64,000 bases of DNA from an uncultured bacterium (GCA_963825135.1 CAWGRW010000009.1:1152001-1216000); one strand, 5' to 3'; positions 37,574 through 44,817 are shown, counted from the first letter of the stretch. The notes: generated from the letters alone by a model not told the origin. Numbers and translations are program-made.

Positions 37574-38809
37574 ATGGGAAAGGTGAAGAAATCGGACGCC
37601 TCAACGCCCGAACCGTTCGTGCCGGACAAGGTCTTCTCGGCCGAAGCAAGCGTGAATAAAATCATTCCAAATGTTTTGAATTCCCCGCAAAAGTACATCC
37701 AGGGAGACGGTGTTCTGAACGATCTCGGACTATACCTCGGGCTAATCCACAGCAAGCACGCCGCCGTTCTGATCTCGGGAGGAGGGGAAAAAAGGTTCGG
37801 CGAGATGATAACACAAAGCTTAAAACGCTCGGGCATTGCCGGGACCCTCGTCACATTTTCCGGGGAGTGTTCTTTCGAGGAAATCGAGCGTGTGACTGAG
37901 TTATTGAGGAAAGTGAAAACGCCGGTCGATTCGGTTGTCGCGATCGGCGGAGGAAAGTGCCTCGATACGGGGAGGGGCGTGGCTCACCGCCTGTCCGTGC
38001 CCGCCGTCGTATGTCCGACGACCGCATCGACGGACGCCCCGTGCGCGGGCTTGTCGGCGATATATTTTTCTGACGGTAAATTTCGGGGCGTCGAGCTCTA
38101 TCCGCTCAACCCGGCCCTCGTGGTTGTCGACACGAGAATCGCCGCTCAGGCTCCCGTGCGTTTCATCGTATCCGGCATGGGCGATGCGATGGCTACATGG
38201 TATGAAGCGCGCACCTGTTACCAGAACCCGAAGGGCAAAGCTATACTGGGCACGCGCCCCACTATAGCCTCTGTCGCAATAGCCGAGCTATGTGCAACTA
38301 CTCTCTATGACCGCGGCGTTAAGGCTGTCGAAGCCGTAAGGGATTCGCAGGTAAATGAATCTGTCGAGCGTATTGTCGAGGCTAACACACTCATGAGCGG
38401 AATAGGATTCGAAAGCTGCGGTGTGGCCGCAGCACACTGTATCGCTCAGGGCCTTACGGTAATTCCCTCCCTTCACAAAAACTACCTCCACGGCGAAATG
38501 GTTGCGATCGGGCTGATGACGCATCTCGTTCTCGAGGGAAAAGACGACGAGGCCCATAAAGTCGGCGCTTTCTTTTCCAGTGTGGGCCTGCCGGCGCATC
38601 TGGGTCAGATGTCGTTAGACCCGGCGCAGGATATGGAGACACTCCGCAATATCGCCCGCGCCTCTGTTGACTTACCGTTCATTCACAACGAACCCTTCGA
38701 TGTTTCTGAAGACTCGCTGCTTGACGCCATGTTGAAGGCGCACAAGCTCGGCCTTGAAATTACCGAGTCATTCGGGGACGCCGCGTACTTATCCCTGCAC
38801 GGCAAGTAA
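37574..38809 (+). CDS. gldA: Glycerol dehydrogenase (Fe/Zn-containing ADH family)
   Basis: SPQKYIQG, GGGKCLD, PTTASTDAP, SGMGDAMATWYEA and HGEMVA. Confidence 0.88.
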   Translation: MGKVKKSDASTPEPFVPDKVFSAEASVNKIIPNVLNSPQKYIQGDGVLNDLGLYLGLIHSKHAAVLISGGGEKRFGEMITQSLKRSGIAGTLVTFSGECSFEEIERVTELLRKVKTPVDSVVAIGGGKCLDTGRGVAHRLSVPAVVCPTTASTDAPCAGLSAIYFSDGKFRGVELYPLNPALVVVDTRIAAQAPVRFIVSGMGDAMATWYEARTCYQNPKGKAILGTRPTIASVAIAELCATTLYDRGVKAVEAVRDSQVNESVERIVEANTLMSGIGFESCGVAAAHCIAQGLTVIPSLHKNYLHGEMVAIGLMTHLVLEGKDDEAHKVGAFFSSVGLPAHLGQMSLDPAQDMETLRNIARASVDLPFIHNEPFDVSEDSLLDAMLKAHKLGLEITESFGDAAYLSLHGK

Positions 38810-38926
38810 TTGCAATCGCCTTTCTTACCCCAGGCTCAAGTGAATTTCTCAGAGATTCTATATCTTAAGCGTCGTATCGGCCCACTTTGCAACCCTTTCA
38901 TAACCATGGTAATGTAAACCTTATCA

Positions 38927-39313
38927 ATGGCCAGTGATCTGAAATTTGCACACCCTAAATACCTCCTTGTCCCCGTCATTGCTATATTTTTTATACTCTT
39001 TTCAGTCTCCCGGGACGAATCTCCCAACGTTGAATTCGTGAATGTCCCCTGCTCGAGCGCCGTCGTAGTGGCTCATGGCTTCGGGACGTCCTCGCTTTCT
39101 ACGGGACCGAGCGCGCCCGGAAATCAGTCTATGTTGAGTCTCGGTCAGACCGCCATTTTCAGCAAAAGCAGTCAGCTAGTCGGTCTTAACAGTCATAATC
39201 TTTTTTCATACAACGCCGATATGGACTTCCTTCGTATTTATGAGCGGGAAGTAAAATACGATTTAGTTATCTCAAGCAACACCGGCCGTTCCCCTCCTTT
39301 CTCAATTTCTTAA
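38927..39313 (+). CDS. Putative regulatory leader/arrest peptide with an N-terminal hydrophobic segment and C-terminal RSPP
   Basis: KYLLVPVIAIFFILFSV N-terminus; ends NTGRSPPFSIS*; 91 bp upstream of the copper operon. Confidence 0.65.
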   Translation: MASDLKFAHPKYLLVPVIAIFFILFSVSRDESPNVEFVNVPCSSAVVVAHGFGTSSLSTGPSAPGNQSMLSLGQTAIFSKSSQLVGLNSHNLFSYNADMDFLRIYEREVKYDLVISSNTGRSPPFSIS

Positions 39314-39404
39314 TCTCATTTTTTTCATCTCAAATAATAAGAAGTTGGCTGCGGAGAGATAGATTATTTCACCGCCGCGAATTATTGCGTAGAGGAGGAG
39401 TCCT

Positions 39405-40304
39405 ATGTTGCATATTAAATACAAATTACATCTGCTATGCGGAATCGCTTTTGTGCTGGTTTTAGTTTCAATGCCGGCGTCGTCCTGGCCTCACGGGTAT
39501 GCGGGCAAGCGTTTTTTCCCCACCACGCTATCGGTGGAAGACCCGTTCGTGTCAGACGAGTTTTCGTTTCTATTCGGGTATCTCAAAGAGGAGGAGGGCG
39601 AACAGAACTACGATCTCTCGGTCGAGTATTCCAAACGCATTACGCCGCACCTGGGTTTTGCGATTGAAGATTCGTACGAGTTTATAAAGGCTAAAGGAGA
39701 AAAAACACAGCACGGGTTTTCAAACCTTGGGCTGGGTCTTAAGTATCAGTTCCTAACGAACGCCCCGCACGAGGCCATCATGTCGATCGGTCTGGATGCC
39801 GAGATCGGGCACACGGGTGACAGCTCCGTTGACGCGGATGATTTCACGACGCTCGCCCCCGGATTATTCTTCGGGAAGGGGTTCGGCGACCTGCCGGAGA
39901 CGCTGAAATTCCTGAGGCCGCTCGCGATCACCGGAGTGATCGGCCCCGCGTTTACGATCGACAGCGAGGAGCCCGACGTGTTCGAATACGGGTTCACCCT
40001 CCAGTACAGTTTTCAGTACCTAGAGTCTTTCGTGAAGGATGTCGGACTCCCCGTGCCTTTGAACCGTATGATTCTGGTCGTTGAGTTCCCGTTCGAAACA
40101 GCACTGAACGAGGGCAGCGGCGGGGAGACGGAGGGCTTCATCAACCCCGGTATAATATGGTTCGGTAAATATATTCAGCTCGGGGTCGAGGCGCAGATTC
40201 CGGTCAACGACAACTCGGGCGACGGGGTCGGGGTCCTGGCCATTTTCCACGTATTCATCGATGACCTCTTCCCGAACAGTTTGGGGAGGCCTATTTTCAG
40301 ATAG
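39405..40304 (+). CDS. Exported, probably outer-membrane beta-barrel protein linked to copC-copD
   Basis: Signal peptide followed by HGYAGKRFFPTTLSVEDPFVSDE; alternating beta-strand patterns (GFSNLGLGLKYQF, QLGVEAQIPVN); strong AGAGGAGGAG SD. Confidence 0.7.
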   Translation: MLHIKYKLHLLCGIAFVLVLVSMPASSWPHGYAGKRFFPTTLSVEDPFVSDEFSFLFGYLKEEEGEQNYDLSVEYSKRITPHLGFAIEDSYEFIKAKGEKTQHGFSNLGLGLKYQFLTNAPHEAIMSIGLDAEIGHTGDSSVDADDFTTLAPGLFFGKGFGDLPETLKFLRPLAITGVIGPAFTIDSEEPDVFEYGFTLQYSFQYLESFVKDVGLPVPLNRMILVVEFPFETALNEGSGGETEGFINPGIIWFGKYIQLGVEAQIPVNDNSGDGVGVLAIFHVFIDDLFPNSLGRPIFR

Positions 40305-40317
40305 GGGATCAGGAGCC

Positions 40318-40683
40318 ATGAAGAAGGTGTTAAACGTCATTATCCTGTCGTGTCTCGTGTACCTGGGCGTACAGACTGCGGCCCGGGGGCATGCGTTTCC
40401 CGATCATTCGGAACCCAGGGTAGGATCGACGGTAAGCGCTTCCCCGCCCGTGGCGCGTGTCTGGTTCGACAGCGAGCTCGAGGGCGAATTCAGCGAGATT
40501 CGGGTCGAGAACGCCGATTCGGAGCGGGTCGATAAGGGAGACGGGCACGTTGACGAATCCGATTCGAAGCTGCTCGAGGTCGACTTGCCGCCGCTAAAGC
40601 CCGGCACTTACCGTGTGACCTGGGCCGCCGTGTCGAGGGACGGTCACCGTACCGAGGGGAGTTATACGTTCACGGTCAAATGA
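40318..40683 (+). CDS. copC: Periplasmic copper-binding protein CopC
   Basis: Signal peptide, then HAFPDHSEP (His1) and GTYRVTWAAVSRDGHRTEGSYTFTV; no Met-rich Cu(I) loop. Confidence 0.92.
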   Translation: MKKVLNVIILSCLVYLGVQTAARGHAFPDHSEPRVGSTVSASPPVARVWFDSELEGEFSEIRVENADSERVDKGDGHVDESDSKLLEVDLPPLKPGTYRVTWAAVSRDGHRTEGSYTFTVK

Positions 40684-40692
40684 GATGATACG

Positions 40693-41682
40693 ATGATACT
40701 GAATAAACTCGTCCACAGCGCGCCGACATTGTTCGACCTGTTCGCGCTGACCATCTGCATCGGCGCTCTTTCCTGCAGACTATGGGTGCTGCGTGTGACC
40801 GGCAATGTGCCGCACGATCGGGACGAGGGGCTGCTCCTGGCTAATGTGTGGAAGCTGCTTGGCGTCCTGGCCGCGATGCTTGTTTTAAGCAGCTCGATAC
40901 TTCTTCTTACGCGTACGGCCGAGATGAGCGGACTCCCTCTGACGGCCGGTTTCTCGGCCGTACCGAGGGTCTTGCTCAAGTCACATTACGGCCGGGTGTG
41001 GCTGTTACGCGTATCAGCCGTTGCCGTATTATGCACAGCATGGTTAATCGGCAGGGGAGATCTGTATGCGCGCCGGTATCCGATATGCATGTTTATTGCC
41101 GCTGCGGTTATAGCGGCAACCCGCAGCGCTTCGGGACACGCGGCGGACGCGGGGGATTTCAGCATGCCCGAGATTTCTGACTGGCTCCATCTGATGGCCG
41201 CGTCGATATGGGGAGGCGGTCTCATCGCGCTTTCTATCGCCGTTTTACCGATAGTATGGAGGGCGTCCGGAGAACGTCGAAAAAATATTGCGGACATCGC
41301 CGTCCGGTTCTCAGGCCTTGCCGGTATTGCGCTTGTCGCGATTGTAATAACCGCCGGATACAACGGATGGACCGAGGTGGGGAGTTTACGCGCCCTTTCG
41401 GAGACCGACTACGGAAAGATTATTATGGTCAAGATAATTCTCCTCGCCGCGCTCGTTATAGTCGCCGCGTCGAACCGCTACATCAGCATCCCGCGCATCA
41501 TGGGACAATCGGAATCTCGTCGTGGGAACGGCGGCGCGATCGCGTGGTTTATACGTAAGGTCGGGGCGGAAGCCGTTCTTATTCTGGCGCTTCTGGTGTG
41601 CACGGCGCTTCTTCTCCACAATATGCCGGCGAAACATCTTTCTCACGCCGGGCATGAGCACGTGCATGGTATCAAGAAATAA
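40693..41682 (+). CDS. copD: Inner-membrane copper uptake protein CopD
   Basis: Multi-TM; SHYGRVW, SASGHAA, DWLHLMAASIWGGGL and TDYGKIIMVKI; His-rich C-terminal tail. Confidence 0.9.
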   Translation: MILNKLVHSAPTLFDLFALTICIGALSCRLWVLRVTGNVPHDRDEGLLLANVWKLLGVLAAMLVLSSSILLLTRTAEMSGLPLTAGFSAVPRVLLKSHYGRVWLLRVSAVAVLCTAWLIGRGDLYARRYPICMFIAAAVIAATRSASGHAADAGDFSMPEISDWLHLMAASIWGGGLIALSIAVLPIVWRASGERRKNIADIAVRFSGLAGIALVAIVITAGYNGWTEVGSLRALSETDYGKIIMVKIILLAALVIVAASNRYISIPRIMGQSESRRGNGGAIAWFIRKVGAEAVLILALLVCTALLLHNMPAKHLSHAGHEHVHGIKK

Positions 41683-41780
41683 AAGACGATGGAGATGCGG
41701 ATGCCGTGACGAATACCGCTCTAAAATGGCAAGTGTTGGATTTGCAAAAAACAAACAAATTCTGGATAAAGGAGAGTAAA

Positions 41781-42215
41781 ATGAAAAAGTATCTATTGTC
41801 ACTTGCGGTTCTATTTGTTTTGACGGGTCTTTCCTTCGCGCAGAGCAAGGTCGTCGTTGAAGACGCATGGGTGGGGGAAGTGCCCCCTTCCTCTCCGGTT
41901 GCCGCGGCTTACATGACCATCAAGAATGAAGGCAATGCCGACGACAAGCTGCTCAGCGTTACGAGCAGTATTTCGGGAAGCTCTATGATACATCAGACCG
42001 TGATCGACGAGCAGAGCGTCGCGAAAATGGAGATGGTCGATGCGCTCGTTATCCCGGCGGGCAAGAGCGTCGTGCTCAAGCCGGGCGGCACCCATGTAAT
42101 GCTCATGGACCTGAAAGAACCGGTCACAGGTAAAGAGAAGATAGAGCTCGACCTCAAGTTCGAAAACGCCGGGGATATTAAGGTCGAAGCGCCGGTCAAG
42201 AGTCTCAGCAACTGA
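41781..42215 (+). CDS. Periplasmic copper chaperone PCu(A)C
   Basis: AAYMTIKN..DKLLSV and the H...M...LKPGGTHVML copper motif; ATG at 41781 after AAGGAG. Confidence 0.92.
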   Translation: MKKYLLSLAVLFVLTGLSFAQSKVVVEDAWVGEVPPSSPVAAAYMTIKNEGNADDKLLSVTSSISGSSMIHQTVIDEQSVAKMEMVDALVIPAGKSVVLKPGGTHVMLMDLKEPVTGKEKIELDLKFENAGDIKVEAPVKSLSN

Positions 42216-42405
42216 GAGGTTCTGTATACGAAAGCCCCGATGGAATCTTTACCGCCTGAGGATAAAGACGGCTTAAGCATGGGATAGACGTATCGGGTTC
42301 GGATGAGGATTTCTGCCTGATAAGCGCGGCGTTGGCCTCCCCTGATGCCGCTGTGTTGTGCTATACTGCATATCAATCCGTATATGCATATAAAGGAGGT
42401 CTACT

Positions 42406-43354
42406 ATGGCGTCATCAGGCCGTTCAAAGAGCAGCGTAAATACCGAGGCATGGCCGAGCCTACCGCTCGATGAGTGGAAGGAAACATATGCGACCCTCCA
42501 CATGTGGACTCAGGTAGTCGGCAAGATCAGGTTCGCTCAGACCCCCTGGGTCAACCACTCGTGGCACGTGACGCTCTACGTGACGAGCCGCGGGCTCACG
42601 ACCTCGCCAATCCCCTACGGCGAGAAAACATTCGAGATCGATTTCGATTTTATAGACCACAGGCTCGTTATTGAGACGAGCGCCGGCGACGTCAGACATA
42701 TAGAGCTCCGCCCGCGCACGGTCGCCGATTTTTACGGGGAGGTCATGTCCACTCTGCGTGACCTCGGTCTCGACATACGCATTCATACACTGCCGAACGA
42801 GGTCGCCGATCCCGTCCCGTTCGAGAAAGACCTGCAGCACGCTTTCTATGATCCTGACTACGCCAACCGTTTCTGGCGCATATTAGTCCAAACGGACCGT
42901 GTGTTCAAGGAGTTCCGCGCGCGATTCATCGGCAAGTGCAGCCCCGTGCATTTCTTCTGGGGGAGCTTCGACATGGCGGTGACGCGCTTCTCCGGGCGGA
43001 CCGCTCCCCCGCATCCCGGAGGCGTGCCGCACCTCCCCGACGTGGTCGCGCGGGAAGCATACTCGCACGAGGTGAGCAGCTGCGGGTTCTGGCCGGGCGG
43101 CGGCCCCGTGCCCTATCCTGTTTTCTATTCGTACGCGTACCCGGCGCCCGAAGGGTTCAAGGATGCCGCCGTGAAACCGCCTGCCGCTTTCTACAGCGCA
43201 GACCTCGGGGAGTTCCTCCTTCCCTACGACGAGGTGAGAACGGTCCAAACGGCCCGACGACGTGCTCCTCGATTTCCTCCAGAGCACCTATGAGGCTGCA
43301 GCGGATCTCGCGAAGTGGGACCGCCCTGCGCTTGAGCGCGACAAGCTCCCGTAA
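42406..43354 (+). CDS. DUF5996 family protein, frameshifted by an extra base near 43240
   Basis: TLHMWTQVVGK, SPVHFFWGSFD and EAYSHEVSSCGFWPG. The C-terminus LLDFLQSTYEAAADLAKWDR lies in another frame and ends with TAA at 43352-43354. Confidence 0.8.
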
Positions 43355-43372
43355 CGATTAAGAGAGACGACG

Positions 43373-43395
43373 AAGGCTGAGGGGTTTCAGCTTTT
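43373..43395. terminator. Hairpin between convergent DUF5996 and nnrS genes
   Basis: aaggctga-ggggtt-tcagctttt. Confidence 0.55.
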
Positions 43396-44606
43396 AATGG
43401 CGAAAGAAGCTCATGCCTTTTCTCCACGGAGGGTTTCCACAGCATCGGCAGAAATACGATCGCAAAAATAAGGAAAGACAGAATCCACAGGATTTGCGAA
43501 ACGGCGATCCAGAGCCCGTAATTGCCGCCGTCTATTAGCGGGAAGAACACCCTCACGATAGCCCCGGCGAGCAAGACCGTAAAAATCCAGAACACTATCC
43601 GGGGCGGCGCGAATACGTTCCTTCCGGTATGCCCCAGGATCACGCGGGACATGAAGCCGACCGTCATGATTCCGATCCCGCCGTATGTGAAGCTGTGAAG
43701 CGCGGGAAGCTCCGGGATATTGAAATAGAGGGAGAGGAATTTAAGGCCGAACCCTATCGCGATCCAGGCATAAGCGACGAACAGGACCCAGAGCATGGGT
43801 TTGTCCCATATCCCTTTTGAGTACCACCCGTATAACCTGACCGAATAGATCAGAGCGAGTATTCCCGAGATTATCGAAACGAATTTTCCGCTCGTAAAAA
43901 CGAGCTCCGGGAAGAAAAACAAAACGAAGAAGAAAACGCTCAGCATGTCGATGACTCTCCAGTTCCTGGGCTCGAATTTGAACCCGAAACCGTTCCTGAT
44001 AAAGAGGGGTATCATCATCCGGCCCATGAGCAGGATAATGGATATGACAAGGAATAGGGCCGAATATACGCCCCAGCGCTGGCCGTCCGTCAGTACCCCA
44101 AACACGCCGAGATAAAATATAACGTTGCTAACGGCTATCAGCCCAAGGTGAGCGGCGAGCGCCGTTTTCTCCCGGTCCATACCCCTTATTACCGGATACA
44201 ATGTTCTGATAGCGAGAATCAGAACAAACAGGCAATCGAGAATCGCCCCGGCCATCCAGGATATGTCCGTAATCAGGGTTAACGAGATAAACACCCTCGC
44301 GAGTATCCAGAGGGCAATCAATATAACGAGCGCGGATTTTTTACTTATCAGGGCCCCGAATCTGTACTTCTCAATCGTTAGCAGAAAACCGGCTATTACC
44401 GCTATTGTATAGCCGAACAGCATCTCGTGGGCATGCCACATAGTCGGGGAAATATTCTCGAAATTCAGCCTGAGCTTGAAGGTATAGAAGGCTGTCCACA
44501 ACGTCATATAGAACAACGATGACACCGTTGCCAGTATAAAAAACGGCCTGTAGGCGGATTCGAACATCGAGAAATTCCGGTCGCTGCTCGTTATTATTCG
44601 TTTCAA
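43394..44606 (-). CDS. nnrS: NnrS family heme/copper membrane protein (3' end probably frameshifted; both ends approximate)
   Basis: YRPFF, WHAHEMLFGY..AVIAGFLLT, LWVLFVAYAW and MSRVILGHTGR motifs. Confidence 0.85.
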
Positions 44607-44817
44607 CTTAAACCCCGTGTTCGTAGCAAGTGAGCACTCACTCAATATCTTACGTGCCCGGCTTCGCCTGTAAAGTCTCATGTGTGATTCTCGGCCAATC
44701 ATCGTTAGTCGGCCGATAAGCTGCCGCCGGTGCGGGAATCTCGGGCGTCAACTGGTATACTAGAAATATAAACTTTAAGAAGCTCACCCACAAAATACTC
44801 TCAATGCAGGAGGAACA

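Follow-up and report, generated by a model that had tools for sequence, protein, structure and literature searches.

A putative ribosome-stalling leader peptide at the head of a copper uptake and delivery operon, akin to CutF and CruR

The small open reading frame that precedes a barrel-copC-copD-PCuAC operon in an uncultured bacterium is apparently a new relative of the copper-sensing, ribosome-stalling leaders CutF and CruR. It lies in a stretch of 64,000 nucleotides, the whole of which is referred to as the window. With moderate confidence we read it as a CutF/CruR-like stalling leader: a ribosome standing on its last Pro-Pro codons would cover an RNA strand that otherwise pairs with the Shine-Dalgarno (SD) site of the operon, so that the operon is on. 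Directly supported by the data are the conservation of the ORF under purifying selection, the presence of R[SA]PP in homologous and non-homologous leaders, the constraint on CCUCC and the predicted SD helix.

The leader ORF and the operon behind it

The leader ORF extends from 38927 to 39313 on the + strand, as do all features described here. It starts with ATG, encodes 128 aa with the C-terminus TGRSPPFSIS and stops with TAA (39311-39313), 91 nt before the next ATG at 39405. This ATG opens the gene of an outer-membrane beta-barrel protein of 299 aa (39405..40304), for which Pfam gave no match and whose assignment comes from AlphaFold2 and Foldseek. The model shows a signal helix and about 13 beta strands (mean pLDDT 61), and in the PDB it matches outer-membrane barrels best, namely FapF (E 7e-5, TM 0.41-0.50) and also the COG4313 channel 4rl8. 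An alignment of 11 sequences (A4) revealed a conserved N-terminal motif after the signal, with His-Gly and Gly-Lys-Arg-Phe-Phe-Pro among its elements. The following genes encode CopC, a periplasmic copper-binding protein (40318..40683, start refined; PF04234, 3.5e-20), CopD, an inner-membrane copper transport protein (40693..41682; PF05425, 1.6e-17), and a PCuAC periplasmic copper chaperone (41781..42215, start refined; PF04314, 2.1e-37). Pfam, AlphaFold2 and Foldseek thus confirm the operon proposed in the initial annotation, which had also described the ORF correctly (128 aa, export-type N-terminus, RSPPFSIS end, 91 nt before the four genes).

Codons 12-27 (38960..39007) specify a hydrophobic, uncharged segment of the export or anchor type, with K6 and K11 ahead of it and R29-D30-E31 behind, which is kept in alignments A1 to A3. 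Sequence inspection adds a putative Ser-Val-Ser cleavage site to this segment and the preceding positive charges. AlphaFold2 predicted a helix at residues 10-25 (pLDDT about 65-75) as the sole confident part of a model that is uninformative overall (mean pLDDT 46.5); past this helix it gave no confident fold. The sequence also bears out the claim of a single Cys without CxxC: C42, within VPCSS (codon 39050..39052), is the only one, 78 residues from Arg121, and CxxC was not found in the 128 residues. Among 38 aligned sequences only 7 columns are invariant, including Pro41-Cys42 and Pro123-Pro124, and the alignments of the family hold no second conserved Cys or His. Of the features whose conservation was to be checked, the hydrophobic segment and Cys42 are kept; of the three His (9, 50 and 90), His50 and His90 are not conserved. 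A single Cys is, to our knowledge, no recognised copper site.

Elsewhere in the genus, 7 of 9 genomes contain strong homologues with an open frame (E 3e-58 to 7e-46), and the search gave nothing convincing in G001 (86% complete) and G006 (92% complete). Weaker homologues are present in two further genera. A further 34 homologues are metagenomic, and all of them end in R[SA]PP plus 3-4 residues. Even so this group, designated family A, is small: a search of 1.84 billion representatives gave 5 clusters at E<=1e-10. Pairwise comparison of 7 loci gave dN/dS values of 0.16-0.56 for the whole ORF (21 of 21 comparisons) and of 0.09-0.46 across codons 36-100. These values indicate that the ORF is a conserved gene under purifying selection, and for both reasons it is probably translated. 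At every locus of its own family with downstream DNA the leader heads the copper operon, as proposed initially; the barrel gene is always next, 86-137 nt on, and the genes upstream vary. Judged by this gene order the leader is linked to the downstream gene, not to the upstream one.

The sole conserved stretch 5' of the ORF, present in 10 of 10 aligned type-A loci, is a promoter-like block (38887..38915) made up of TTGCAA (38887-38892), 17 nt, and TGn plus TAATGT (38907-38915). As a promoter it is putative, because a strict sigma-70 consensus scan of 38600-42500 yielded 0 promoter-like sites. The block ends about 11 nt ahead of the ATG, so the RNA preceding the ATG would be only about 4-6 nt long, and its position fits a near-leaderless start. 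This bears on whether the ORF is translated at all. The region might be a structured non-coding 5' leader, for instance a metal-responsive RNA, in which the open frame is incidental. Such a view could call on the ATG, which has no SD site ahead of it in the sequence, and on strong predicted structures, including a hairpin inside the gap for which RNAalifold found compensatory changes at 4 pairs among 14 type-A loci. We nevertheless hold it to be very improbable. The frame is open in 33 of 33 loci and in the 34 metagenomic proteins, dN/dS is well under 1, the hydrophobic segment and the Pro-Cys motif are kept at the protein level, and no Rfam family matches the region. The position of the promoter-like block, in keeping with a near-leaderless start, also counts against it.

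Constraint on the RSPP codons and their pairing with the SD site

The best conserved block of the ORF in alignments A1 to A3 comprises codons 110-124 (KYDLVISSNTGRSPP; 39254..39298), within which the 3' ends of the loci show synonymous variation. It is roughly as long as needed to occupy the upper exit tunnel during the predicted stall. At its end lie the Arg-Ser-Pro-Pro codons CGT TCC CCT CCT (39287..39298; CCCCUCCU as RNA), which are at once the candidate arrest site and the candidate anti-SD strand (CCUCC). Only the four tail codons FSIS and the TAA stop follow (39299..39313), a tail length shared by 26 of the 33 loci in our codon table. R[SA]PP is found in 29 of these loci, five of the 33 having Ala instead of Ser (RAPP). 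The remaining 4 carry Lys. Lys-Ser-Pro-Pro is present in the homologues from genus g4 (3 loci) and in an analogous ORF from g11.

The codon table suggests that two kinds of selection act on this short stretch. Arg is encoded by CGT, CGC, CGG, AGA or AGG, Ser/Ala by TCC, TCT, TCA, GCC or GCT, and the second Pro by all four codons; one locus (L035) retains RAPP despite loss of the helix described below. These variations argue that the amino acids of R[SA]PP are under selection. The first Pro codon, by contrast, is CCT in 32/33 loci, although CCT makes up 20% of the Pro codons of this genome and 29% of the first codons within its Pro-Pro pairs, and CCTCC is retained in the Ser-Pro-Pro codons of 32/33. 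Furthermore, dS of codons 101-128 was below that of codons 36-100 in 20 of 20 computable pairs, the 21st being saturated in the middle of the ORF. The CCT bias, the retention of CCTCC and the low dS at the 3' end point to selection on the RNA at CCUCC.

The partner of CCUCC would be the SD site of the barrel gene. In the minimum free energy and partition-function folds the 5' arm of a long-range helix (39289..39296) pairs with a 3' arm formed by this SD site (GAGGAGGAG; 39392..39400), which is also apparent from the sequence and the computed duplex (-15.2 kcal/mol). The predicted probability that the SD core is paired with the stretch from RSPP to the stop is 0.99 in the window and at least 0.97 in 14 of 15 type-A loci. 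In loci of other leader families (B, C and D) it is 0.40-1.00 (9/9 evaluated, gaps of 95-261 nt). The flanks of the helix vary between families, with complementarity retained; within family A the closing helix is invariant, and for this reason shows no covariation there. In between, the 91-nt intergenic region (39314..39404) is predicted to form internal hairpins (e.g. 39351-39375). Pairing of this strength is not rare: among 400 control genes with a strong SD site from this genome, 39, about 10%, also reached at least 0.97 (median 0.62), as did one barrel locus without an upstream ORF (0.97). We count the frequency among control genes against the arrest reading.

The motif recurs where the peptides cannot be aligned. 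An operon with the 299-type barrel is present in 13 of 120 genomes of the phylum, and in 12 of these 13 a small upstream ORF has a hydrophobic N-terminus and ends in R[SA]PP plus 3-7 aa, G047 lacking an R[SA]PP leader ORF upstream. The expectation that RxPP would be conserved upstream of homologues of the barrel gene was thus borne out, even among unalignable peptides. These leaders fall into at least two families without detectable homology. Families B/C and D do not align with family A, and hhalign gave 2.8% for A against C, 1.3% for A against B and 97.4% for C against B. Of the genomes carrying a related 293-type barrel, 5 of 15 miss the leader ORF.

A predicted translational switch and its alternatives

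In the reading we favour the leader is a translated, exported peptide encoded at the 5' end of the barrel-copC-copD-PCuAC mRNA, and acts in cis as a translational switch. Codons 39287-39298 would have a dual role. On the peptide side they would specify a RAPP-like, stall-prone motif four codons ahead of the stop; on the RNA side they would pair, in a long-range helix, with the SD site at 39392-39400. Without a ribosome at RSPP the helix would mask the ribosome-binding site and the operon would be poorly translated. A ribosome that pauses or arrests when the two Pro codons occupy its P and A sites would cover the anti-SD strand, the SD site would be freed and initiation on the copper operon could take place. 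Once the nascent chain is released, termination four codons further on would allow the helix to re-form and shut the operon. Arrest at RSPP is inferred. Its release may depend on co-translational export, on metal binding (Cys42) by the part already exported, or on both; Cys/His or the export force may thus be the sensor, as the initial annotation proposed. Copper is the putative signal, and by analogy with CruR, and from the uptake and delivery functions of the operon, we expect it to be ON at low copper.

Several published observations, as given in the available parts of the papers, make such a switch plausible. RSPP was recovered from random arrest screens, is under-represented in proteomes and, when it replaces RAPP in ApdA/ApdP, is partially permissive for arrest (PMC12992588). 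In the genome studied here it is found 8 times in ORFs of at least 150 aa, against 16.9 expected. PMC12992588 also places small secretory proteins with RAPP/RGPP 5' of metal genes, PCu(A)C among them, and states that arrest by CruR was demonstrated in vitro. CutF regulates cutO through the unfolding of an SD-shielding stem-loop (PMC9973294), and in vivo pairing of ribosome-binding sites with aSD-like sequences hundreds of nucleotides away has been described (PMC12697547). Other reports weigh against arrest. The proline-rich motif of CutF caused no strong stalling in the authors' assays, according to the accessible text of PMC9973294. Mutagenesis of ApdA/ApdP found Arg irreplaceable (PMC12992588, available part) and Ser only partially permissive, yet Lys variants occur in g4 and g11. 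An EF-P is also encoded in the genome studied here, and EF-P would relieve ordinary Pro-Pro pausing, a further point against arrest.

The same helix could serve plain translational coupling, which would involve neither arrest nor sensing. A ribosome translating through the 3' end of the ORF, or terminating there, would melt the anti-SD:SD helix; the product would be either a small protein for export or a disposable peptide, and RSPP mainly the anti-SD strand (CGU UCC CCU CC) read in frame. The near-invariance of CCTCC and of the first CCT codon is what coupling would predict, and in families B, C and D the helix takes in the Arg and Ser codons too. Because CCUCC itself appears to be selected as RNA, Ser-Pro-Pro could partly be a by-product of an in-frame anti-SD strand. 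For the Lys variants the folds predict that the final codons and the stop, not the Pro codons, are the partner of the SD site, a pattern that fits termination coupling. The stop follows Pro-Pro by only 2-7 codons, so a terminating ribosome would cover the strand as well, and purifying selection on codons 36-100 is what one expects of a protein with a function of its own. What makes us consider coupling possible but rather unlikely is the behaviour of the peptide motif. At least three leader families that are unrelated to one another always read Pro-Pro in this frame, and Arg is kept through codons that differ as RNA (CGN, AGA, AGG), as is Ser/Ala through its five. The Arg and Ser codons are conserved even though the helix leaves them out in most family-A loci, and L035 has RAPP without any helix. 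In addition, RSPP is a known stall-prone, proteome-depleted motif, and AlphaFold2 gave no confident fold past the N-terminal helix.

A stalled ribosome might also act on transcription. As described in the part of PMC9426467 available, CruR, an exported peptide with RAPP three residues from its end in front of a copper-repressed uptake operon, does not need its signal peptide for its action, which proceeds by Rho-dependent termination within a gap of 162 nt. By analogy, a ribosome stalled at RSPP would mainly block loading of Rho on the C-rich, G-poor segment that is conserved after the stop in family-A loci; release would lead to termination in the 91-nt gap, SD sequestration being secondary. 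The terminator scan was empty in this gap, with no U-tract terminator, a further point in favour of this view. However, the gaps of families A and A' are short (84-137 nt) compared with that of CruR, and the feature conserved across unrelated families is the SD-anti-SD helix. We therefore think attenuation of this kind improbable.

Relation to CutF, CruR and RAPP-like arrest peptides

The initial annotation considered the ORF a distinct class of arrest peptide, and this can be rejected. A rule-based CutF-like class has been defined as products of a first gene that are shorter than 150 aa and exported, with Pro-Pro within the last 15 residues; it is encoded upstream of copper genes, including those for PCuAC-like chaperones, and comprises many unrelated clusters with Cys and/or His motifs (Ozturk et al. 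2023, PMC9973294, in the text available). The leader has 128 aa, Pro123-Pro124 five and six residues from its end, and a 91-nt gap followed by barrel, CopC, CopD and PCuAC genes. [quoted passage not shown] It fits this published CutF-like/RAPP-like class as a variant, not as a separate class.

The leader is set beside CutF by described features, not by sequence similarity. Common to both would be action in cis on the next gene, with an SD site hidden in mRNA structure that a lingering ribosome opens, which in the present case is predicted, like the shielding structure itself. The differences are considerable. CutF has CxxxC, whereas the leader has no CxxxC, one Cys and no Cys/His metal-binding motif beyond the invariant Pro-Cys. 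Its motif is Arg-Ser-Pro-Pro, and its anti-SD strand lies on the Pro-Pro codons inside the coding region rather than in an intergenic stem-loop. The genes behind it serve uptake and delivery instead of encoding a multicopper oxidase, and its lineage is Dadabacteria/Thermodesulfobacteriota, not Rhodobacter capsulatus.

Like CruR of Bordetella pertussis (Roy et al. 2022), the leader is probably exported, of similar size (about 130-145 aa), located before a copper-related uptake operon and endowed with R-x-P-P 3-4 residues ahead of the stop. It differs in having RSPP for RAPP and a single Cys for CxxC, and in that the conserved feature is a predicted SD-sequestering helix and not Rho-dependent termination. 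DUF2946 (PF11162) genes are often followed by those of PCuAC, CopC and similar proteins (PMC9426467, available part). The leader does not belong to DUF2946, as Pfam gave no family for it at E<=0.1 and no match for six related or analogous leader peptides at E<=10, and a six-frame search for DUF2946 in 120 genomes of the phylum had 0 hits over the cut-off; the check proposed initially is thereby answered.

With ApdA, ApdP, SecM (RAGP) and the RQH family (Sakiyama 2021; Fujiwara 2024, 2025; Morici 2024) the leader shares a putative localisation signal at the N-terminus, a conserved R-(A/G/S)-P-P core near the C-terminus after a family-specific conserved stretch, a position immediately 5' of the gene that is, or here would be, regulated and a patchy phylogenetic distribution. 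The ApdA/ApdP/SecM type precedes Sec/YidC genes and the leader copper genes, but the wider RAPP-like class does include metal genes, and the natural core RSPP of the leader, where arrest is predicted, is only partially permissive in ApdA/ApdP (PMC12992588, in the part available).

Sister leaders come closer to CruR in one respect. The CxxC of CruR lies 45 residues before RAPP, and that of family C 43 residues ahead of RSPP. Two more ORFs of the same genome end in RSPP, each with a hydrophobic N-terminal segment and a predicted probability of SD pairing of 1.00. One of them, without a Pfam match at E<=1, has CxxC 44 residues ahead of RSPP and precedes a porin-like gene and genes for ZnuA, an ABC ATPase and an ABC-3 permease, that is, a ZnuABC operon.

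The leader ORF and the copper operon

The leader ORF occupies positions 38927-39313 of the plus strand. It starts with ATG and encodes a peptide of 128 aa that ends in TGRSPPFSIS and is followed by a TAA stop codon. Residues 12-27 form an uncharged hydrophobic stretch, preceded by Lys6 and Lys11 and followed by Arg-Asp-Glu. The peptide has three histidines and a single cysteine (C42, within VPCSS), and a CxxC motif is absent. A gap of 91 nt separates the ORF from the next gene, which starts at 39405 on the same strand and encodes a product of 299 aa belonging to no Pfam family. Further downstream on the plus strand lie the genes for CopC (likely start 40318; PF04234, 3.5e-20), CopD (directly downstream of CopC; PF05425, 1.6e-17) and PCuAC (likely start 41781; PF04314, 2.1e-37). 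The initial annotation had listed the ORF, its hydrophobic N-terminus, lone Cys and RSPP end, the 91-nt gap and the four-gene operon, and was correct wherever we checked it. A model of modest confidence (mean pLDDT 61), built for the 299-aa product from an 11-sequence alignment, consisted of a signal helix and approximately 13 beta strands. Its best PDB matches were outer-membrane barrels (FapF, E 7e-5, TM 0.41-0.50), with the COG4313 channel 4rl8 ranking lower.

A gene encoding a DUF5996 protein (42406-43293, plus strand; E 4.5e-134) follows the PCuAC gene, as it also does in the metagenome loci L033 and L037, and may therefore be part of the operon. Its end overlaps by about 70 nt, as called, with a convergent gene for NnrS (43224-44702, minus strand; E 8.4e-86).

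Searches of the leader ORF against Pfam and NCBIfam gave a single line (gntP, E 0.068), which was judged to be a chance match, and Rfam gave no match in the window at 38700-39500 with E<=1. The only confident fold in an AlphaFold2 prediction from 38 sequences was the N-terminal helix, which does not tell the different readings of the ORF apart. A C-terminal sorting signal and a RiPP precursor were considered and dropped, neither motif nor partner genes being present.

A six-frame search of 40 relatives revealed strong, uninterrupted matches to the leader ORF (63-74% identity) in seven of the nine other genomes of the genus and no convincing match in G001 (86% complete) or G006 (92% complete). 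Weaker matches were found in the genera g5 (32%) and g4 (approximately 22-25%). A collection of 5.8 billion proteins contained 34 homologues, located in Dadabacteria/Thermodesulfobacteriota bins and called 'hypothetical' where named. When 1.84 billion cluster representatives were searched with a profile, only five clusters reached E<=1e-10; three extra matches at E<=0.001 were discounted as long proteins that aligned in several short stretches. Judged by these searches, the leader family (family A) is small and lineage-restricted.

The dN/dS ratio ranged from 0.16 to 0.56 in all 21 pairs derived from seven loci. Purifying selection thus acts on the frame, and this strongly, if indirectly, argues for translation of the leader ORF. 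No Shine-Dalgarno (SD) site precedes its ATG in the window sequence. The sole conserved DNA 5' of the ORF is a block of TTGCAA, 17 nt and TGn-TAATGT, which is present in 10 of 10 aligned loci with differing upstream genes and ends 11 nt before the ATG. This block may be a promoter giving rise to a near-leaderless mRNA, a reading drawn from its conservation since a strict sigma-70 consensus scan of 38600-42500 called no promoter-like site.

In G009 (loci L008, L063 and L068; 7% contamination) the leader ORF looks disrupted by an N-terminal frame break. A 293-aa barrel gene of this genome also looks disrupted, being split and carrying one in-frame TGA. In G007 (L010, L022) the 299-aa barrel is split across two frames. 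These breaks could mean that the entire unit is decaying or could stem from faulty assembly.

The R[SA]PP end and other leader families

All 34 metagenomic homologues terminate in R[SA]PP plus three or four residues, and the two most divergent representatives end in NRSPP plus two or four residues. Seven columns are invariant in an alignment of 38 leader sequences (Met1, Pro41-Cys42, Pro64, Leu113 and Pro123-Pro124), and Arg121 is conserved to at least 90%. Lys replaces Arg in the distant homologues of genus g4 (three genomes; L025:2964-3338, L026:2983-3357 and L027:2994-3368), which end in Lys-Ser-Pro-Pro plus four residues. These homologues sit between leuS and a glutaredoxin-like gene, and copper genes are not adjacent.

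That RSPP serves as a stall motif is plausible in view of PMC12992588. According to this paper, Ala-to-Ser was partially permissive in a systematic mutagenesis of ApdA and ApdP, random arrest screens yielded RxPP with x being Gly, Ala, Ser or Pro, and RSPP ranks with the most under-represented tetrapeptides of bacterial proteomes. In G000, the genome of the window, RSPP was observed 8 times against 16.9 expected in a crude set of ORFs of at least 150 aa. The Arg is described in the same paper as irreplaceable, which counts against arrest in the Lys-bearing versions of genera g4 and g11.

Among 120 genomes of the phylum, 13 possessed the 299-aa barrel, each time with CopC following it and, where the DNA continued, with CopD as well. 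In 12 of these an ORF of approximately 100-150 aa with a hydrophobic N-terminal segment and R[SA]PP plus three to seven residues at its end lies directly 5' of the barrel gene, so that two of the features proposed for ORFs upstream of homologues of the 39405 gene were recovered in all genomes except G047, where a divergently transcribed gene is found upstream. Besides family A, the leaders of orthologous barrel operons fall into families B, C and D. Family C (genera g17, g20 and g21; L012, L043, L045-L048) is Cys-rich, with CPxH and CxCxxC motifs and a CxxC 43 residues before RSPP. Family B (g19; L011, L041, L042), which is His-rich and has one Cys in approximately 101 aa, is related to family C (hhalign 97.4%, E 1e-11), being shortened and having lost CxCxxC. 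It represents a second, independent CxxC-less leader version in front of the barrel operon. Family D (g10, a high-GC genome) differs again. Between family A and families B and C no relationship was detected past the last few residues (hhalign 1.3% and 2.8%, respectively). In other words, leaders of orthologous copper operons have only three things in common, namely an N-terminus of the export type, one or more Cys, and R[SA]PP a few codons ahead of the stop. Arrest peptides are recognised by such a pattern of shared features, as stated in PMC10987492.

In most genomes of the genus a 293-aa barrel (Pfam Phenol_MetA_deg) takes the place of the 299-aa barrel-CopC-CopD unit. It occurs in 15 of the 120 genomes; seven of them have a family-A leader, two carry different ORFs with an [RK][SA]PP end (one of these ORFs is doubtful), five lack a leader ORF and one further genome was not assessable. 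The doubtful case, a RAPP-ending ORF at L065 (g26), has no clear hydrophobic segment and a predicted SD pairing probability (P) of 0.04. At L060 (G018, genus g6) a cupredoxin-like 136-aa gene precedes the 293-type barrel in place of an RSPP leader.

Leaders of this kind are not confined to the window. A scan of G000 for ORFs with [RKH][SAG]PP near the stop codon revealed two more with hydrophobic N-terminal segments, both outside it on the same contig (C9). The first (G000:C9:1144883-1145272, minus strand; L050:4887-5222) lies about 7 kb before the window start and has an RSPP end, a hydrophobic segment, His residues and a CxxC 44 residues before RSPP. It is located 211 nt 5' of a porin-like 464-aa gene, which is followed by genes for ZnuA, an ABC ATPase and an ABC-3 permease. 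The second (G000:C9:2307255-2307662, minus strand; L051:2259-2663), of 135 aa and with AGA as the Arg codon, follows a TonB-C gene and precedes by 92 nt the gene of a 108-aa secreted protein with sub-threshold similarity to CusF/DUF1344.

Predicted pairing of the Pro-Pro codons with the Shine-Dalgarno site

CCUCC is complementary to the Shine-Dalgarno core. The Arg-Ser-Pro-Pro codons of the window are CGT TCC CCT CCT, and across all families the first Pro codon was CCT in 32 of 33 loci; CCTCC was likewise present in 32 of 33. In G000, CCT makes up 20% of Pro codons and 29% of first codons in Pro-Pro pairs. Furthermore, dS was lower in codons 101-128 than in codons 36-100 in all 20 computable pairs, the 21st being saturated in the middle.

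The folded span began 15 codons ahead of the leader stop and included the first 15 nt of the next gene; P was scored as pairing of the SD core with the stretch from RxPP to the stop codon. The predicted P was 0.99 in the window and at least 0.97 in 14 of 15 family-A loci; the exception, L035 (P 0.00), has the Pro codons CCC CCT and a longer gap. In families B, C and D predicted values of 0.40-1.00 were obtained in all nine loci evaluated, with gaps of 95-261 nt; L043 was left out of the scoring because it has no standard SD, its GTG start following a GGGGGA stretch. The Znu-operon leader and the third RSPP leader of G000 have the Pro-Pro codons CCT CCG, a matching CG or ACG precedes the downstream SD, and P was predicted to be 1.00 in both. 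In the three g4 loci, where the SD is that of the glutaredoxin-like gene, P was 0.97-1.00, and the predicted partner is not the Pro codons but the final codons together with the stop. The Lys-bearing versions of g4 and g11 are those in which the SD would pair with the stop-codon region.

Pairing at a single locus is unremarkable, since 39 of 400 strong-SD genes of G000 also reached P >=0.97 (median 0.62) and six barrel loci without a leader ORF gave 0.40-0.97. What is remarkable in these predictions is that unrelated leaders repeatedly offer the same partner strand. On either side of its core the helix varies between families yet remains complementary, as seen when the duplexes were tabulated; within family A the helix never varies, and covariation is absent there. 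An internal hairpin in the gap (39314-39404) shows compensatory changes at four pairs in 14 family-A loci, and a C-rich, G-poor stretch after the leader stop is conserved (alignment columns 70-100). These two elements might hold the helix arms together or serve Rho loading. In a 2025 preprint (PMC12697547), anti-SD-like sequences hundreds of nt away are reported to pair with the ribosome binding site in vivo and to be depleted from genes. In G000, CCTCC and CCTCCT occur at 0.79 and 0.63 of the codon-shuffle expectation.

Peptide and RNA both seem to be constrained. In the 33 loci CGT, CGC, CGG, AGA and AGG all serve as the Arg codon, five codons are used for Ser or Ala, and each of the four Pro codons occurs at the second Pro. 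For most family-A loci the helix does not include the Arg and Ser codons, the frame is invariably Pro-Pro, and L035 retains RAPP where the helix is absent. All of these observations favour a constraint on the peptide. The near-fixed CCT, the depressed dS and the helix itself favour one on the RNA. Plain translational coupling at the end of the leader ORF seems to us a rather unlikely account of the locus.

Proposed arrest-gated unmasking and known systems

A stalled ribosome shields about 12 nt of mRNA on its 5' side and about 15 nt on its 3' side. If it stalled with Pro123 and Pro124 in the P and A sites, its footprint would extend to the stop codon and cover the entire anti-SD strand. This would free the SD at 39392-39400 and allow the copper operon to be translated; upon release, termination four codons on would let the helix re-form. 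On balance we favour this arrest-gated unmasking of the SD as the way in which the copper operon is controlled. As EF-P is encoded in the genome, ordinary pausing at Pro-Pro would probably not suffice by itself. By analogy with CruR, as described in PMC9426467, copper bound to the nascent chain would relieve the arrest and shut the uptake operon. Alternatively, the stall might be controlled by export pulling force or by a periplasmic interaction of Cys42. The one conserved Cys of the window peptide lies 81 residues before Pro-Pro, so that by the time of the stall it would have left the ribosome and probably crossed the membrane.

Unmasking of an SD is known for SecM-secA. The same logic has been shown for CutF-cutO (PMC9973294). 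In the window, in contrast to both, the repressor strand would be the stall site itself. Taken together, the Ser-Pro-Pro codons might form a dual-coded switch in which the peptide stall site is also the mRNA anti-SD strand and the arrested ribosome sits on the repressor strand. Such a design would have evolved or been kept in at least three leader families without detectable homology, as a general post-transcriptional switch of metal-uptake operons (copper, Znu-type) in this uncultured phylum; the window's family would have lost, or never had, the CxxC sensor and would read out another cue, for instance the pulling force of export or an interaction of its lone Cys in the periplasm. We hold this wider reading only tentatively.

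By the Pfam profile the leader ORF is not a member of DUF2946/CruR, and the same applies to related leaders, the Znu leader and the 120 genomes of the phylum. It fits the rules for CutF-like proteins (PMC9973294, section 10), having less than 150 aa, a Pro-Pro among its last 15 residues, a putative N-terminal signal and a same-strand neighbour, and differs from them in lacking a Cys/His pair. PCuAC-like chaperones are among the commonest neighbours of CutF-like proteins (PMC9973294, section 11). The ORF therefore belongs to a published class and is not the distinct class of arrest peptide for which it had been taken; what survives of the earlier proposal is a good candidate for a stalling leader of the copper operon. 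The kind of system is known; new are the sequence family, the natural RSPP core, the lack of a CxxC sensor, the lineage and the fact that the stall codons and the anti-SD strand overlap. Full-text literature searches found no description of the leader family or of this overlap, and supplementary lists of CutF-like or RAPP-like proteins might include members.

To our knowledge, experimental work on metal-sensing stalling leaders (CruR, CutF) has so far been done in Proteobacteria and arrest work in Streptomyces peptides, and RSPP is known as an arrest motif only from mutants or libraries. The leader ORF and its relatives would supply a natural RSPP-type family in an uncultured phylum. Leaders with and without CxxC before orthologous operons offer a ready comparison for the role of the sensor part, and the overlap suggests, in simple physical terms that can be tested, how a stalled ribosome may activate the next gene; both lend themselves to direct experiments. 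A suitable search rule would be a small exported ORF with RxPP near its stop codon and a CCUCC complementary to the next SD. For annotation, 'hypothetical proteins' of 100-150 aa before copper or zinc operons are probably regulators and not structural proteins.

PMC12992588 reports arrest of CruR in vitro and places small secretory proteins with RAPP or RGPP upstream of genes for PCu(A)C, YcnI, TonB receptors and thioredoxin/DsbA, across phyla. The thioredoxin/DsbA genes are reminiscent of the glutaredoxin-like gene that follows the g4 homologues.
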